Positions 4,901 through 20,270 of a stretch of 40,539 nt of DNA are shown here, piece after piece (positions within the stretch are counted from its first letter, which is position 1; every line of letters starts with the position of its first letter). A model generated the notes under the pieces. The model saw only the letters and a program-made list of their open reading frames with translations, was not told the origin of the DNA and made no database searches. This DNA comes from Reclinomonas americana ATCC 50394 (lineage: Eukaryota). The DNA lies in NCBI GenBank assembly GCA_048213135.1, contig PS015025.1, forward strand, positions 89,170 to 129,708, given 5' to 3'. Position numbers and translations under genes: made by a program.

Positions 4901-7900
4901 AGTGTCTGGCTTGTCGGGTCCACATACACGCCGCGAGGTTGGTTGAACGCCGCAACACTCCCTGTGCCGTCAGCCCACAACGGGGTGCCCGATTGTCCGG
5001 CAATGGTGGTCACCACACCACCGCTATCAATGCGACGCAGTGCATGGCTCAACGTCTGTCAGTAACGCCACACACAGTATCAGCAAGTGTTTCTCCGCAT
5101 GCATAAAGTCGCGTGAGCGCATTGCACTTACATCGGCGACGTAAAGAAAGTTGGCGGAAGTGTCAAACGACACGGATGCCGGTCTGCATCGAGGAGTGAG
5201 AAAAAAACAAGGTGGAAGCGATACCGCGAGCCATGCCGCCACCAACTCACGAATTGAATCGAGCTGCACTGCCAGTGCCGTCTTGGTAGCCGCGCAGACC
5301 GGCCGTGCCGGCAAAAGTGGTTACTGCGAACGTGCTGAGCACAACTCGTCGAATGGTGTTGTACCTGTCCATGTTGCAAGCAAGCAACCAAAAAAAGAAG
5401 GAACGCTGTCAGCAGCTGGTCAACACGGATGAGTGGCGTGATGAGGGCGACCACACTCACGAGGTGTCCGCAATGTATGCGTTGCCGGCGCCGTCGAGCG
5501 TGATGCCCTGCGGGTTGTTGAAGCGAGCAGCAAGGCCGGTTCCATTGGCTGAACCCTGCACGGTGGCAAGGCCGGCGACTGTAGTCACACTCCACACAAA
5601 TGCCGGCATGGTGGTGGCGTACTCCATAGTGATTGATGCTGTGCCTACGCCGCTGGCGTCGACGGTTCCCATCATGGTGGCGGCACTGTCGGCAGTGACT
5701 GCGGAGCCGGTGGACGCCAGCTGAGGTGCACTGGTCATGGTGGTGAAGCCGAACACGTTGCCGACAATGGGCACGGCAGATGAGGTGGCCACAGCACGGT
5801 AGTAGTAAATGGTGTTCGACGTCAAGCCGGTGACTGCGGCAGATACCAGCGAGCTCGAAGAGCCAGTGAGTACACTCGGCGATGTGGCAACGACGCTCGC
5901 CTGCGGAGCCGTCATCTTTCGGATTACGTTATTGAGGCTGCGCGCAGAATGAGAACAGAAGCGCAGACCCTGTCGAGCTCAATGGTACACACCTGTCGGC
6001 GACATACACATCACCGCCGGCGTTCACCGCCACACCAAGCGGATAGAAGAAGCGCACAGCGGCGCCCGTACCGTCCGTATAACCAGGTCCATTGGAGCCA
6101 CCGGCGTATGTGGTCGTGACACCGGCAGCAGTGGTCACACGTCGGATTCCTTGATTATTGAAGTCACCGATAAAGAGTGCGTCCTCGGTGGGCGTCAGCG
6201 CGATGCCTACGAGAAAGTTGAATCGTGCCGCAGTACCGGTGGCGTCGGTATTTCCGCCCGCAGTGCTGCCCGCAAGCGTCGTCACCACACCGGCCGATGT
6301 AATGGCTCGAATGAGACGGTTCTGGGTGTCGGCCACATACACCGTGCCGGAGGACGCGACACAAATGCCCGAGGGCCCTGGAGGCAGTCGCGTATGAGAT
6401 AAAGACCGTGAGCGATGAGTGGCAACACGACAAAAACCATTAAAGGTGGCCGCAGTGCCGGTGCCGTTGGCGGAGCCGGAGGTGCCCGTCGCATTGCCGG
6501 CAAACGTCGACACGGCGCCGGTGGCCACGACCACTTTTCGAATGGTGTTCGAGTCCGTGTCCGCAATGTACAAATTGGTAACAGTTGAATCGGCATCCAC
6601 GTCACCGGGGTTCTTGAGGATGCCTGGTGTTCCACTGCCGATGCCGTAGGAGCCAGCGGTACCGACTACGGTGCTTACAATCGCCGTCGATGTGACCTGT
6701 CAGCATGGTGAGAAGACTGCAAGTCGTTGATAGAGCGCACGATGCACGCAATGCACCTTGCGAATCGTGTTGGAACCCGAGTCGGCCACCCACAATGTAT
6801 CCGTGGAATCAATACCAAGACCACGCGGTCCATTAAGCTGCGCCGCAGTGCCGGTGCCATCAGCAGTGCCGCTGACGCCAACCTGACCGGCAAAGGTGCT
6901 GGTGACTCCGCCGGAGGTCACTCGCCGAATGAGATGATTGCCGGTCTGTGTGCAAAGTATTGGTTGACGTCCAGTGAGAAAATGTAAAAAATGCAAAGGG
7001 GGAAACTACTGCTGCAGCGCAACATCGGCCACAAAGATATTGCCAGTGGAATCCACCACGACATCATTCGGGGTGTTGAAGCGCGCCGTGCTACCGTCCG
7101 TGGTACCAGCGTTGCTGACGGAGCCGGCAAACGTCGACACGGTGGAAGTGGAAAGCACGATCTTGCGGATAGCATTGTTGGTGCTGTCGGCCACATACAG
7201 CAGACCGGCCTTGTCGGAGCGCAAGCCTCGAGGATAGTAGAAGCGAGACGCGGTGCCGACACCGTCAGCGTTGCCCGAGTAGCCAGAGCGGCCTACACAC
7301 GGAGAGGGAGAGAGAGGGAGGGAGAGGGAGGGAAGGAGAGAGGACGCATGAAAACAAAGACTATAACTGATGCGGCGAAAGCCAACAGAGAGACGCAACC
7401 GCAAATGGTCGTGACTGTGTATGGCGCGGTCGTGGAGACACGGCGAATAATGTGATTGTTCTGGTCCGTGACGTAGAAGAAACCGGCGCCGTCGAGCGCA
7501 CCACCAGCAGGATTGGTGAATGTTGCAGCAAGGCCATTGCCGTCGTTGCTTGACGCTGCTCCCGAACCGGCAACCGTGGTCACCGTACCTCCGGGAATCG
7601 TCATCTATGGAAGCGCAGTGCGGTGAACGACAGCACACTTGTGGGTGCGAATACCAGAGAGATGATGACCGCAACTGTTCGGACGGTGCGGTTATTGTTG
7701 TCGACCAGCCACGCAAGGCCATTGGCCGAGTCGATAGAGATGCCCCAAGGCTACGCACGCAGCATGTATTCAGCTTGCGATAGACTCACCAGCGACGGCG
7801 CGACAAAGGAACACGCACCGAACTCAGTCGCGCCACACTGCCTGTTCCGTCGACATTGCCGGGGGTGCCTGCCGATCCCGCAATGGTCGTCACCACGGCA

Positions 7901-13850: not shown

Positions 13851-15302
13851 CGCGGGTCGATGCAGATGCGCAACAGGTGGCGTCAGTGTCGGCGGGCACG
13901 GCAGCGCCGGCGATTGCGAGTGTGTCGCTGGAGGGACCACCGGCGGCGGTGCGAGTGGCGCCTGGTGCGGCGGCGGCGGCGGTGACTCGCCTGTCACGGC
14001 GCCAGTTCAATCGCTTGTTCCGTTTGGCGACTGAGCATCTGTCGGCGTCACCCGAGGTGTTTGTCAATGATGGCGCTGTGGGATCGGCCCCGGCCACGGC
14101 GGTGCCTGTGCGTGCCATCTCCGACAATGCTCTCTCTTCACTGTCATGGAGGTGCGATGCAGTTGGTGCATACACAGTGGTGGTTATGCCGTTGGTGCTC
14201 ATGCGCGAATCCGCAGCAACTTTTTGAACAAGGTCTCCATGCGTGATCCCTTCAGCTTTGCACAACGTGTGACCGTGTACAACGTGCCGCTGTTTGCGGC
14301 GGCGGCCGAGGAGCTCGGTGAGCAAGGAGACAGCTCGCTCACAACACTCGTGTCCACGTGCTGTGCGTCTCATTATTGTGTGCATCTGTGTAGCCGCCGT
14401 GGGCATCAAGGGCACCGACGCTCTGGTGGTCAATGCGCAACGCGGTGCCGTGCTTGCTTTCGGCTCGTCCGCACAGCTGGCCACGGCCGCTGCACGGAAT
14501 GCAGTTTTCCAGTTGGCTGCTGCGGCCGGTGTGTTTCATTTGTTGTCTTTGTCCGCGCTTTTCTTTGATGCCCATGTGCGCGATTGCAGAGGATGGCGCC
14601 GTGGCTTTGCCCGATGCTGATGCTCGCATGATCGGTGGCAAGTTTGTGGCTGTCGTTGACGGATCATCGGTGGCCGGCGGCTATGGGTGCGGCTGAGACG
14701 CAGACAGAGAGAGAGAGTACTGTGGGAGATCATCATCTCATTCGTGCTGTGTGCAGCTACTCTGGCCTCTTCTGGTCCGACGCTGGTCTCTCGCGTGCCT
14801 GGATTGGTGCCGAGGGCGCATCAGTGGCCGCGCAGAGCGGTGCTGTGCTCAATCGCGACTCAGGTGCCGTGCAAGCCGCGGTGACTGCGGGCCAGGCCAA
14901 TCTGGTGCCGAAGCCTGACGTGCGTTGACACGTGTTGTGTGTGTTTTTCCCTTTATTCCAGCGTCATCAGCTCATTCCTCGTGTGCTCAGGCCGTGGTGT
15001 TTGTGTCGTCGGCCGCCAAGAAGAGTGGCCGTGTGGACTCGCAGGAGAAGCTGCTGTCGGTGCTGTTGGCACGGCCGGCGGTGCTGACAACGGATCCATT
15101 CCAGTTGTCCGCGGCACTGTGGTCCCGAGCGCAGGCCTCCAAAACACCACTTCTGGTGGTCAAGTCTAACGACGAGGTGGCCAACTTCTCAGGGATCGCC
15201 AACGCCACGGCCGACGTGAAGGAGAACCCCGCCGCTGTGGAGGCTTTCCGAGGCGTTTTCCCGGCGCCGGCTCCACCAGCCGCCGATGCTGCCAAGAAGT
15301 AA
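13559..15302 (+). CDS. Divergent PEP-carboxykinase (ATP)-fold-like protein, 5' partial
   Basis: Spliced product has PREG..LN.DLNWSL..GV...AYRN and LSRRQFNRLFRLATEHLS..EVFVNDGAVGS....VPVRAISD, resembling the PEPCK N-terminal domain. No GxxGxGKT P-loop is seen. Six introns; TAA stop. Confidence 0.65.
13807..13847. repeat. (GT)n microsatellite in an intron
   Basis: About 20 perfect GT units. Confidence 0.9.
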
Positions 15303-16212
15303 GCCTACAGCAGCAGCAGCAGCAACAACGTTGTGTCCTTGTATTCGCGTCTGGTGCACCCGCACCCCATTCTCTTCACATTAACAGTGAAAGTAACCTA
15401 TGCTTTTCTCACCTCTATCGCGGCTGAGCGCCTTTAATCGCGCACTCAGCGACACAATTTGTTCACCCGGTCTCTCACTACGCACACACAAACACACACA
15501 CACACACACTCGCCGAGAGTTGCACACACGCCACCACGCTCACACCCGCACAAAAACATAGAGGATACAGATTGCAGTGATGATGAACGAGGCGCCGCGC
15601 AGTTCGACACCTCCCGAGTCCCACATTTCTGCATGCCACGACCGGGTAAGCCAAGTGTGACACACAGGCGAGTACACGAGATGGTGCATTCACTACTCAC
15701 CCCCTCGTTTGAACATTTAACAACACACACACACATACGACAGATAACGCAATGCATACACAAGAAGAAAAGCCAAGCAAAAAAAAGACATCGTCGTCGT
15801 CGACTGCAAACATGGAGACAATAGAGAGACTGCCGCGGATTACATAAAGTCTGTGTGTGGCAAGCAATCTGTGAGCACGAATCGCAGCACGGAACATGAC
15901 GCATGTGTGTATCAAACAAACCATCGGGATCCCAGTCTGCATACGCAAGCATACACAAGGCGCAGAGTGAGACATCGAGTGACTGATATATCTATCATAG
16001 ATTCTTTGTCTTCCTTTCTCAAGATGACGATAAGAATGTTGCCCCCGTATAGTGCCAAGTATCCACGATAGTACACATCATTGGCTTGGTATGGAGTGAA
16101 TAAGAGCAGATCATTCTTGGCCATCTAGGTCGCTGATAACCGCACTAACGAACGGCTGCCAGCTGATGAGAGGCCTCAACAGGGGGAGAGAGAGAGAGAC
16201 AGGGGGGGGAAA

Positions 16213-16480
16213 GGTGGGCTCTTGTTCACACCGTATCTCTTCTTCTCTTTTCCTCTCTCATGCACAACCTCTTTCTCCTCCTACTCACTTCAGCCAAAGG
16301 AGGTGGCCTCTTGCTCACACGATATCTCTTCATCTGTTTTCCTCTCTCATGTACACCCTCCTTCTCATTTCATCCTATTCTTCTGTTTCACAGAAGGGAG
16401 AAAGTGAGACAGGAGGTGGTCTCTTGTTCACACAATATCTCCTCTTCTCCTTTCCTCTCTCATGCACATCCTCTTTCTCC
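16213..16480. repeat. Three degenerate ~68-bp direct repeats
   Basis: ggtgg.ctcttg(t/c)tcacac..tatctc...tttcctctctcatg(c/t)aca.cctc.ttctc at about 16213, 16302 and 16415. Confidence 0.7.
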
Positions 16481-16584
16481 TTCTTACCACCATCCGATCC
16501 CCTTCCTGTTCTTCCCAATATCTCTTCTTCTCTTTCCCTTGTATCACTCTCTTTCTCCTCCTCACTTCATCCTATTCCTCTGTA

Positions 16585-18979
16585 TCACTCACCGTCGTCC
16601 TCCTCCTTGCCCGTAATCTCCAGATACTCATTCAACTCCGTCAGGTCAATGGCGTAGCGCAGAATACCACCAATGCCACCAAAGCCGCGCACAAACTGCG
16701 AGCCCTCCTGGCTGAGGTTGGTGACGAATTCGAGATGGCAACCGAACGTCTTGTATGCGATCGTCAGCCAGTCGGTCATTGGGTCCGAGTCGACGACCTC
16801 CAGGTGGGAACCTGCGGCACGAATATTTTTCAGCCCCGACATTTTCTCTTCTCCAACACACAACACAAAACAAGTGACAACTCACCAGTCTCCGGGTCCA
16901 CAAAGTGGCTCTCGTCCTTGGCCTGCTCGGGGGTGAGGAACTTGAACATTTCATCTGCAAGCGCAGTTTAACAATCAGCATCGCGACATCACAATATCTC
17001 GTGACTCTCCCTCCTCTCACGAACCACCACTGGCAGTGTTGCGCATGACATAGCGCGTGCACTCGAGGTTTTCCCACACAATCAGCGTCTCCACGGCGCC
17101 GAGTTCGAGTGCCTTGAGTGTGTCGGATACACCAAACACGAACTTGTTCGTGTCTGCAGCACTATCCAGTCAGCAAGCGCACATTTCGCAAGACACAAGA
17201 CACACGGCGCTTCGCTCAATCAAGACCTTGGTGAATCTGCTCGAAAAAGTGATTGATCAACTTCTTCTCCTGCACAAACTTGACCGAGGACAATGATTCG
17301 GCAGCCAACTCAATGGCCTGGTTGAAGCCAGCCTCGCCACCGTACGCCACATCGACACTGCAAATGACCTTGCAGGCCAGGCGCGGATCAAACATGTCCG
17401 AGCCACCCAATTCTGTCTTGAAGTCGGCCGAACCAGCCAACACCAGTCCCGACACATTCGCTCGGTCGTTGGCGATGAAGAGTTGCGTGGCACACTCGGC
17501 CACCTTGCGCAGGTAGTTGTGACGCTTCTCCAGACGCAGACGGGCGAAACGCACGGCTGACTGACCACCACGACCGTGTTTCTGCAAATCGAACGAGTGA
17601 TGAATTCACCTGCAAAGTAAATGGCGAGCGTGCTGGCGCACACACACACACACAGACCTTGGGCAGGTCGACGAGGAACTTGTGAATGACCTCGCGCGAG
17701 TTGCCACGCAGTGTACCAAACAGGCAGCCATTACCGTCCATCACTGCAGTAATCGATCGATCAGCAAGGACACGCATCCACCCCGACAAATATGCACACA
17801 GCAACCCACCGATGAAGCCGAACGCCTGGTCGTCCACCAGCAGCTCCGACAGTGGCTCCGTGTGGAAGCGGTTGTCGCACAGGTACAGCGATGTGTTGAT
17901 GGGCTTGAATGGTTCAAAGTCATAAGTGACCTTCTTCTCCTTGCCATCCTCGGTCAGCACCGTACCGCAGTAGATCACCAACCCGTTCGGCGGTGTCTGC
18001 TCGCCACCTTGGTGAGAGTGCTGCGCGAGCGCCAGTGTGCTCTAACAGCAGTGCGTGCACACAAACCTTGTTGTAGAGCTTCAGACGCTGCATCACAGAT
18101 GTGATGGCATCGAGCACCGACTGACGATTCACACGACTCTTGATGTTGGTGGCCGTGCCCTGCTCTTCGGAAAGCATCTTGTTTGCACGCGAGATCTGCC
18201 AGTACACAAACACACAAACACACAATCAGTCTTCGACTGCGACGTAGGGCAGCAAGGCATCGTGTTGCCCACCTGTTCACCCGGCGGCAGAATCAAGGAA
18301 CTGACATTGCAAAAGAGGAGCAAGGAGTGAGACGGGGGTTATAGAGAGGGGAGGGACGGACGCCGCAACATCATGCTCTGCGTGCGGAGAAAGCAAGAGT
18401 GAGTGTGCGATGATGGCGGATTGGACAACAATAATAAGCACAACTCACCGTGCCTGACAACCGCCGCACACGCACACGCACCGAAGAACAGCACAGTGAG
18501 CATATACATAGAGAGGGAGGAGAAGCGACTGGTACTTGCACACACACACACACACACACCATTGCTGTGTTGCACATCAATGAGCATCATTATTATGTAC
18601 ACAACGAGAGAGTGGTCACATTTGTTGGAACTCACCCGCGTGCTTCGTCCAGCTTGCGAATCATCTTCTTCACACGGAATTGCTCTATTCACATATGTGG
18701 AACACAGTGAGCAGCAGGTGCGACGCATGAAAAGGAGAGCGTCGGAAGTAGTTGGTGATGTGCATGTACACCCGTCGCACTCAACACCAAGCACGTACAG
18801 CTTGAAACGCCGTTCGACAGACAGACAGAAAAGAGACAGAGCGTGGGAGACAGCAGCACAGACAAGCTCTCTGTTCTCTCTATTCTCTCTGTCTGTGCGC
18901 GTGCGTGTGCACACCATGCCCCAAAAAAGCACGCACCAATGTTGACATCGTACGCCGAGTTTGCCGAGGACGACGCCAT
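16585..18979 (-). CDS. ETF1: Eukaryotic peptide chain release factor 1
   Basis: Spliced product contains [35 protein letters not shown] and [17 protein letters not shown]. Micro-exons lie at 18560-18564, 18449-18453 and 18370-18377. The 3' end is uncertain: either TGA at 16585 or further acidic micro-exons down to about 15790. Confidence 0.97.
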
Positions 18980-19125
18980 GGTTAACGAAAGGAGAGTGGA
19001 GGAAGAGCGAAGCGGAGGGGGATAACAAAAGCGTGCGCCCAGCGCCGAAGTGAGTGAGAGGGACAGTCGCTCGCGCATCATCATCTGTCCCCGTTTCCAC
19101 ATCGCTGTCAACACACGAACGAGAG
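18980..19125. promoter_or_regulatory. Compact divergent (bidirectional) promoter region between eRF1 and LAMTOR1
   Basis: The two ATGs are 146 bp apart and point away from each other. No specific motif was identified. Confidence 0.55.
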
Positions 19126-20270
19126 ATGGGCTGCTCACAAACAAAGCAAGCTGGTGAGTGAAGGAGAAGGAGAAGGAAAAGGAGAAAGAGGAGGAGAAGA
19201 AGAGTGTGGCAAGTGTGTGTGCGGATATTTTTTCCTCATTGTGTGTGTTGTGTGAGGGGTATCTGCATCAACGTGTCACGCGTGTCTGTCTCTCCTTTCT
19301 CTACTCCAAATGGTGTGGACAACGCGCATGCTCGTGTGCGTGCATGTGTGTGCGCGCGTGTGTGTGTGTGTGGGGTTGTCGCGAGTGTGAACATCACGCG
19401 CCATGCCGCATGCCCTCGCGACTCACACACGCACACTACAGACGCTCAGGCAAGTCGGCAGCGTATTCCGGCGGCGGGAGATGGCTCCTCGGGCGCAGGA
19501 GGCGCCTCAGCAGCGCGACCGGCGGGTGGCGCAGGAGCGGGATCGTCGGGCGCAGTGGCGGGCTCTGTGAGCCGCAGGATAGGCAGCGGCGGAGCGTGAG
19601 TACACAATGACAAGCGAGTACGCGTGCGTGCAGCATGCTCATTTCCTTGTTGGATGGAACAGTGAGGAGGATGACACTCGCATGGGCACGTCGTACACGG
19701 ACGAGCGCATGGCACAGCAGTTCTACAAGGAGATTATCGACCGAACGGCGCAGTTTCGTCTTCTCTCGCGGCAGCGTGTTTGACGGACGGTGGAGTGCTC
19801 ATTGAGTCTCTGCACAGCAACTTTATCGATGTCGATCAGATGCCCACCACGTTTGACTCGGCCGATGCGTCGCGCACCCTGCAAGTGTACTGGTTGGTAC
19901 AAGTAATAATTCCTTGCTGCGTCCGCTTTTCCTTGTGCCTGACTCGTTGGGCGCTGTGCACAGCGATCGCATTCGCAATCCCGAAGTCATGGAGCTGGTG
20001 GCGCACTCGTTTGCGCTGCCGCCGTCCAACGTGCGCGACGTGAACAGCCTCGTGTCGGCGGCCTCGGATGCCTCCATCTCGGCCGACGAAGTGGCACTGG
20101 TGAGTTTCCCTTTGACATTTTTGCTCGCTGCCAACACAAGTCTCACGTTTTGTTATGTTGCGCAGTTGAACCGCATCTCCGAGTCGCTGTCGCACGCACG
20201 ACGAGACATGACGGTGCACGGCGCCGAGCGGGTGGTTGTCCTGCTGCCGGAGATTTCCGCGCGTGCGTAA
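19126..20270 (+). CDS. LAMTOR1: Ragulator subunit LAMTOR1/p18 (Meh1/Ego1 family)
   Basis: N-terminal MGCSQTK lipidation-type start, the family motif FYKEIIDRTAHNFIDV and a C-terminal V...ERVVV.LP. Five introns; TAA stop. Confidence 0.75.

Follow-up and report, generated by a model that had tools for sequence, protein, structure and literature searches.

An eRF1 gene on the minus strand

The window, by which we mean the whole 40,539-nt stretch of Reclinomonas americana ATCC 50394 DNA that was analyzed (assembly GCA_048213135.1, contig PS015025.1, positions 89,170 to 129,708), contains an intact eRF1 gene on its minus strand, extending from position 18979 to position 15840. Reading the exons by eye and assembling them by coordinates gives 15 coding exons and a protein of 445 amino acids. 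All 14 introns are bounded by GT..AG, and the joined exons form one open frame of 445 codons that ends with TAA, followed by TCC. Coordinates within the gene are given here in the direction of transcription. The coding part of exon 1 (18979-18937) opens with an ATG at 18979-18977, encodes the same MASSS... N-terminus as P0121, a protein of a relative, and ends in phase 1. Exon 2 (18684-18636) is followed by three micro-exons and by exon 6 (18300-18273), all four of which are described below, and exon 7 (18195-18067, 129 nt) encodes the NIKS motif. The remaining coding exons are exon 8 (17996-17810), exon 9 (17743-17658), exon 10 (17581-17227), exon 11 (17153-17025), exon 12 (16954-16886), exon 13 (16811-16593), exon 14 (15936-15922) and exon 15 (15850-15840).

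Exon 10 alone, translated into 118 amino acids, matches eRF1 chains in the PDB with E = 3e-53. The three-domain architecture of eRF1 is recovered from Pfam matches to single exons, all of them above the curated cut-offs: eRF1_1 in exon 8 (2.7e-10) and exon 7 (2.7e-06), eRF1_2 in exon 10 (1.1e-31) and eRF1_3 in exon 13 (1.2e-11). The spliced model also contains the complete eRF1 motif set as given in PMC11277123, namely GTS, NIKS, YxCxxxF (here YLCDNRF) and GGQ, with GTS present only if the three micro-exons are included. Judged from its sequence, the identity of the gene as eRF1 is not in doubt.

Very short coding pieces also occur at the 3' end of the gene. Exon 14 is a fourth internal micro-exon of 15 nt, and it is separated by a 71-nt intron from exon 15, which consists of the last 8 coding bases plus TAA. 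Together they encode a C-terminal end that matches P0121 and a second predicted protein, P0005; without both, a stop would be reached two codons into intron 13. Tiny exons are therefore no one-off in this gene. Intron 13 (16592-15937) is the one long intron, at 656 nt, and blastn detects within it diverged direct repeats of about 72-73% identity, near 16588-16398 and 16391-16188. Tandem Repeats Finder, run over 15800-19400, reported two short arrays upstream of the eRF1 gene and none in its introns, the repeats of intron 13 included.

Three probable micro-exons and the GTS loop

The first-pass annotation of this DNA had proposed that the GTS motif is assembled from three consecutive micro-exons of 5, 5 and 8 nt, and every coordinate and flank that it gave for these pieces is borne out in the sequence. 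Exon 2 ends ...GCA CGC GG/gtgagt, in phase 2 inside the Gly31 codon. Micro-exon 1 (exon 3, 18564-18560; acacag/CAATG/gtgtgt) supplies the third base of Gly31, Asn32 and the first base of Gly33. Micro-exon 2 (exon 4, 18453-18449; gtcag/GCACG/gtgagt) supplies the remainder of Gly33 and Thr34, and micro-exon 3 (exon 5, 18377-18370; cgcag/AGCATGAT/gttgcg) supplies Ser35, Met36 and the first two bases of Ile37. Exon 6 (gtcag/TTCCTTG..., 28 nt, reading T TCC TTG ... CAG) completes Ile37 and continues with SLILPPGEQ, of which LILPPGEQ is shared with P0121 and P0005. Joined by coordinates, exons 2-6 read in frame as ...EARGNGTSMISLILPP..., and N-G-T-S-M-I is supplied only by the AG/GT-flanked pieces of 5, 5 and 8 nt. 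Each of the three has an AG upstream and a GT downstream (cag/.../gt) with a complete intron on both sides, and their inclusion restores both the reading frame and the conserved peptide. The uninterrupted motif is absent from every frame of the eRF1 gene, and a six-frame scan of the window finds a sole NGTS-type match, on the minus strand near 14025 and outside the gene. From this arrangement we infer that the three are very probably genuine, constitutively spliced coding micro-exons. In the proposed mechanism, 18 coding nucleotides would be split by four short introns, every one of them equipped with a 5' site, a branch-like motif and a CAG 3' site, and removal of these introns would rebuild Gly31(third base)-Asn-Gly-Thr-Ser-Met-Ile(first two bases).

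The introns that flank the micro-exons look like the other introns of the gene in both length and branch-site-like motif. Introns 2-5 measure 71, 106, 71 and 69 nt, and 8 of the 10 other introns measure 66-77 nt; the greater length of intron 3 is partly due to the (GT)10 with which it opens. In 12 of the 14 introns, including all four around the micro-exons, the motif CT[CG]A[CT] precedes the 3' site by 16-43 nt. As background, 156 of the 821 CAG sites on the minus strand have it 10-48 nt upstream; the enrichment is somewhat overstated because the motif was defined after inspecting these same introns. In intron 2 (18635-18565; gtgagt...acacag) it takes the form CTCAT, 16 nt before the 3' end. 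The form CTCAC is found 43 nt before the 3' end of intron 3 (18559-18454), 22 nt before that of intron 4 (18448-18378; gtgagt...cgcag) and 27 nt before that of intron 5 (18369-18301; gttgcg...gtcag).

Some features fit less well with constitutive splicing of all three micro-exons. The donor that follows micro-exon 3 (GAT/gttgcg) fits poorly with the gtgagt/gtgcgt type that is more common in the gene, intron 3 has its branch-like motif as far as 43 nt from the 3' site, and the donor of micro-exon 1 heads the (GT)10 run, which amounts to a ladder of alternative GT sites. The run occupies 18559-18540, opening at the first base of intron 3 and offering a GT every 2 nt; a later GT serving as donor would put the downstream sequence out of frame, except after a slip of 6 nt. 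Another AG/5 nt/GT piece is located further into intron 3 at 18534-18530, and it would keep the frame if it replaced micro-exon 1.

How exons of this size might be recognized is suggested by the genome of this intron-rich eukaryote, whose introns are short and uniform at about 70 nt. Splice sites are thus probably paired across introns (intron definition), in which case exon length would carry little weight. Neighboring introns would probably be removed one by one, each step joining a micro-exon to a longer exon, because a 5-nt exon leaves no room for spliceosome complexes on both of its sides. According to the account in PMC8378409, microexon inclusion is tied to intron definition, short flanking introns favor inclusion, and shortening a flanking intron lifts the need for a helper factor.

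Intron positions in other eRF1 genes

Comparison with a relative supports the spliced model. All 445 residues align with P0121, an uninterrupted ORF of 462 amino acids, with 328 of 445 identical and no gaps at the micro-exon junctions. Both proteins start with MASSS and end alike at the C-terminus, and both have the unusual LILPPGEQ after the motif. On exon 10 the nearest sequence is P0004 (86% identical), which was translated straight through genomic DNA and is interrupted where the gene in the window has introns 10 and 11. At least introns 10 and 11 are thus shared in position with this relative; the contig of P0004 does not extend far enough to include the N-terminus. P0005 and P0121, which belong to one cluster, are the next nearest proteins. 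No protein identical to exon 10 was found in a collection of 5.8 billion proteins, and the eRF1 gene therefore appears to be without public annotation in that collection.

Intron positions elsewhere, which the first-pass annotation had put forward as a check, were examined in 83 eukaryote-like eRF1 loci, 80 from metagenomes and three (L081-L083) from prokaryote bins. The latter came from a scan of prokaryote contigs in which 80 loci were kept; these three were eukaryote-like, none of them close, and the rest were archaeal aRF1 with 28-40% identity. The foreign loci include no close relative, the best reaching 80% identity on exon 10. The motif, as R-G-x-G-T-S-x-I-S, is found in one frame in 70 of the 83 loci, and nine loci stop short of it. 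Among the 70, 19 have 48-158 extra nucleotides between the motif and GGQ, which points to introns elsewhere in those loci, and a further 11 are located on contigs 4.4 kb or longer; the remaining 40, mostly short contigs with cDNA-like spacing, are uninformative on introns.

Four unrelated-looking loci (L002, L069, L077 and L083) have an intron exactly at the position of intron 2, in phase 2 within the Gly31 codon, and in L083 this intron is 33 nt long. Across all 74 loci that extend to the motif, the positions of introns 3, 4 and 5 are free of introns. Given the absence of these positions elsewhere, introns 3, 4 and 5 look like lineage-specific gains, and by this sequence comparison they would be three additions to a position, that of intron 2, that is either older or recurrent. 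The same comparison also counts to some degree against the micro-exon reading itself, as the motif is split in this way in none of the 83 loci from elsewhere.

Two possible sources of the introns were considered and rejected. An introner or transposon origin was sought by all-against-all blastn of the 14 introns and by blastn of the introns against the window, and only the GT microsatellite and the internal repeats of intron 13 were recovered. As a test for tandem duplication of exons, introns 2-6 were aligned locally with spliced exons 1-7, and the alignments were no better than shuffles, with 81-238 of 300 shuffles reaching the observed score.

Chance, gene copies and the idea of a regulated switch

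The peptide match was evaluated by a search of all paths from the exon 2 donor to the exon 6 acceptor that are built from AG..GT-bounded pieces, with introns of at least 30 nt and up to 6 exons. In this 335-nt stretch, eight canonical paths add 18 nt and only one of the eight encodes G-N-G-T-S-M-I; the runners-up match at 5 of 7 residues and include two of the three micro-exons. When in-frame additions of 3-30 nt are allowed there are 92 paths with GT donors, rising to 309 once GC donors are added, and none of these is a rival with the exact seven-residue peptide at the 18 nt that homologs require. The other paths that give G-N-G-T-S-M let micro-exon 3 run on to a later donor, adding 1-4 residues. 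Among 3000 dinucleotide-preserving shuffles of the stretch, none matched at 6 or 7 of the 7 residues and two matched at 5. The match of the micro-exon peptide is far beyond chance.

These results bear on the view that the match is coincidental, or that this copy is not the working gene. Exon 2 would then be joined directly to exon 6 or spliced through other sites, or else the locus would represent an assembly artefact or a paralogue in decay, with a normal eRF1 elsewhere in the genome. The seven further canonical 18-nt paths give this view some footing, in particular the one in which 18534-18530 replaces micro-exon 1 to give G-T-S-T-S-M-I. However, that peptide is seen in no foreign locus, so the site at 18534-18530 is probably a chance one, and more generally, among the 74 foreign loci that extend to the motif, not one has a peptide of the alternative paths. 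A coincidence is further opposed by the failure of all 3000 shuffles to approach the observed match. A dead copy is difficult to reconcile with 15 exons in one open frame, all catalytic and decoding motifs intact and 74% identity to a relative over the full length. Furthermore, N runs are absent between 13528 and 24721, and hence from the eRF1 gene, and no second eRF1-like stretch was found within the window. Overall, we regard a coincidental match or a non-working copy as unlikely. The micro-exon array might alternatively be real but act as a regulated switch, in which partial skipping yields mRNA targeted to NMD, full skipping yields a protein without GTS, and the balance of inclusion and skipping sets eRF1 output or alters stop-codon specificity.

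The arithmetic behind such a switch, as proposed in the first-pass annotation, is right: skipping one or two of the micro-exons leads to a stop at codons 33-43, whereas skipping all three keeps the frame, joins ARG to SLILPP and leaves 439 amino acids. Retention of any of introns 2-5 likewise leads to a stop, by codon 80 at the latest. However, these premature stops follow from exon lengths alone and are nonspecific, since any exon with a length not divisible by 3 shifts the frame when it is skipped. We also know of no route by which the level of eRF1 could steer the splicing of its own transcript. A weak donor at micro-exon 3 and the ladder of donors in (GT)10 could make inclusion leaky. Likewise in favor of a switch, the Met36 ATG within micro-exon 3 is the counterpart of the start of human eRF1 isoform 2, and the predicted ORF P0005 of the relative starts exactly at this Met, its cluster mate P0121 being full length; however, ORF calling on a contig truncated at its 5' end would explain the start of P0005 equally well. 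According to PMC11277123, human isoform 2 begins at Met34, has neither helix alpha1 nor the GTS loop, and shows a preference for UGA. Its start codon aligns with the ATG inside micro-exon 3, but as described there it is an N-terminal truncation produced by alternative transcripts or leaky scanning and not by micro-exon skipping. Dosage of eRF1 is under feedback control in plants, where, in the account of PMC5397192, eRF1-1 is subject to negative feedback through stop-codon readthrough and an NMD-triggering 3'UTR. This resembles the feedback on eRF1 level through NMD that had been proposed here; however, the plant circuit as presented in that source depends on the context of the stop codon and on the 3'UTR and does not involve coding micro-exons.

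The autoregulatory splicing/NMD idea is therefore unsupported at this locus, and a regulated switch seems very unlikely. The same holds for the notion that leaky recognition of 5-nt exons lets the three micro-exons gate the decoding end of eRF1 in a tunable way, which we regard as quite improbable. If it were true, a controlled share of transcripts would be directed to NMD, possibly along with forms that start at Met36 or lack N-G-T-S-M-I. An eRF1 without GTS would then have an altered stop-codon preference, as human isoform 2 does, and splicing fidelity would be coupled to termination efficiency. What the earlier proposal said of the GTS loop, that it has a role in decoding stop codons, agrees with the published accounts in PMC11277123, PMC3384315 and PMC4381064.

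Returning to the three constitutively spliced micro-exons, they are an extreme case of a kind of gene structure that is already known. In plants, exons of 1-15 nt have been confirmed by RT-PCR or RNA-seq, and a Peptidase M1 gene has an adjacent microexon pair of 5 and 12 nt (PMC8831610, PMC11096116). As described in these sources, the ultra-short plant microexons are, like those in the window, internal coding exons of a few bases with canonical sites, positioned inside conserved protein motifs; they too are essential for the frame, can lie side by side, escape de novo annotation and are attributed to introns gained step by step. Unlike the plant cases, the array in eRF1 consists of three consecutive micro-exons, none longer than 8 nt, that total 18 nt. 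In addition, the plant examples are RNA-confirmed and conserved across many species, whereas the eRF1 array is a prediction from genomic sequence. Human RPS24, also a gene of the translation machinery, has three consecutive microexons as well (3, 18 and 22 bp). However, these are described as alternatively spliced, whereas the eRF1 micro-exons encode an invariant functional motif and show no sign of alternative use.

In the literature surveyed, supplementary files aside, no report of micro-exons in an eRF1 gene was found. If the array were confirmed by cDNA, four introns within 18 coding bases would, to our knowledge, make this one of the most fragmented coding stretches known, and that stretch is an invariant functional loop of an essential gene. 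By themselves the micro-exons reveal no new biology of translation termination. They would lend themselves to studying how the spliceosome copes with 5-nt exons in immediate succession, and they would illustrate a cluster of lineage-specific intron gains next to an intron position of greater age.

They would also put gene predictors and spliced aligners to a hard test. It had been suggested that automated annotation would overlook these exons, and it is plausible that annotation software tends to do so. When the spliced model is searched against the window by tblastn, residues 2-31 and 38-180 are placed but residues 32-37 are not, and the HSP for residues 2-31 ends at 18635, one base into intron 2. 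In plants, most microexons of 15 nt or less are missing from reference annotations, as reported in PMC8831610. A gene model without the six residues would falsely suggest a release factor that lacks GTS or a variant genetic code.

Elsewhere in the window, nine N runs of 20 to 749 bases represent scaffold gaps, all of them outside the eRF1 gene. Rfam at gathering thresholds and ARAGORN returned no matches across the whole window. Of ten long stop-to-stop ORFs of the window that were compared with Pfam, a single one has a match; it is located on the minus strand at 5929-6699, and its matches are to NHL repeats and to the teneurin NHL domain, at 2.6e-15 and 5.2e-10.
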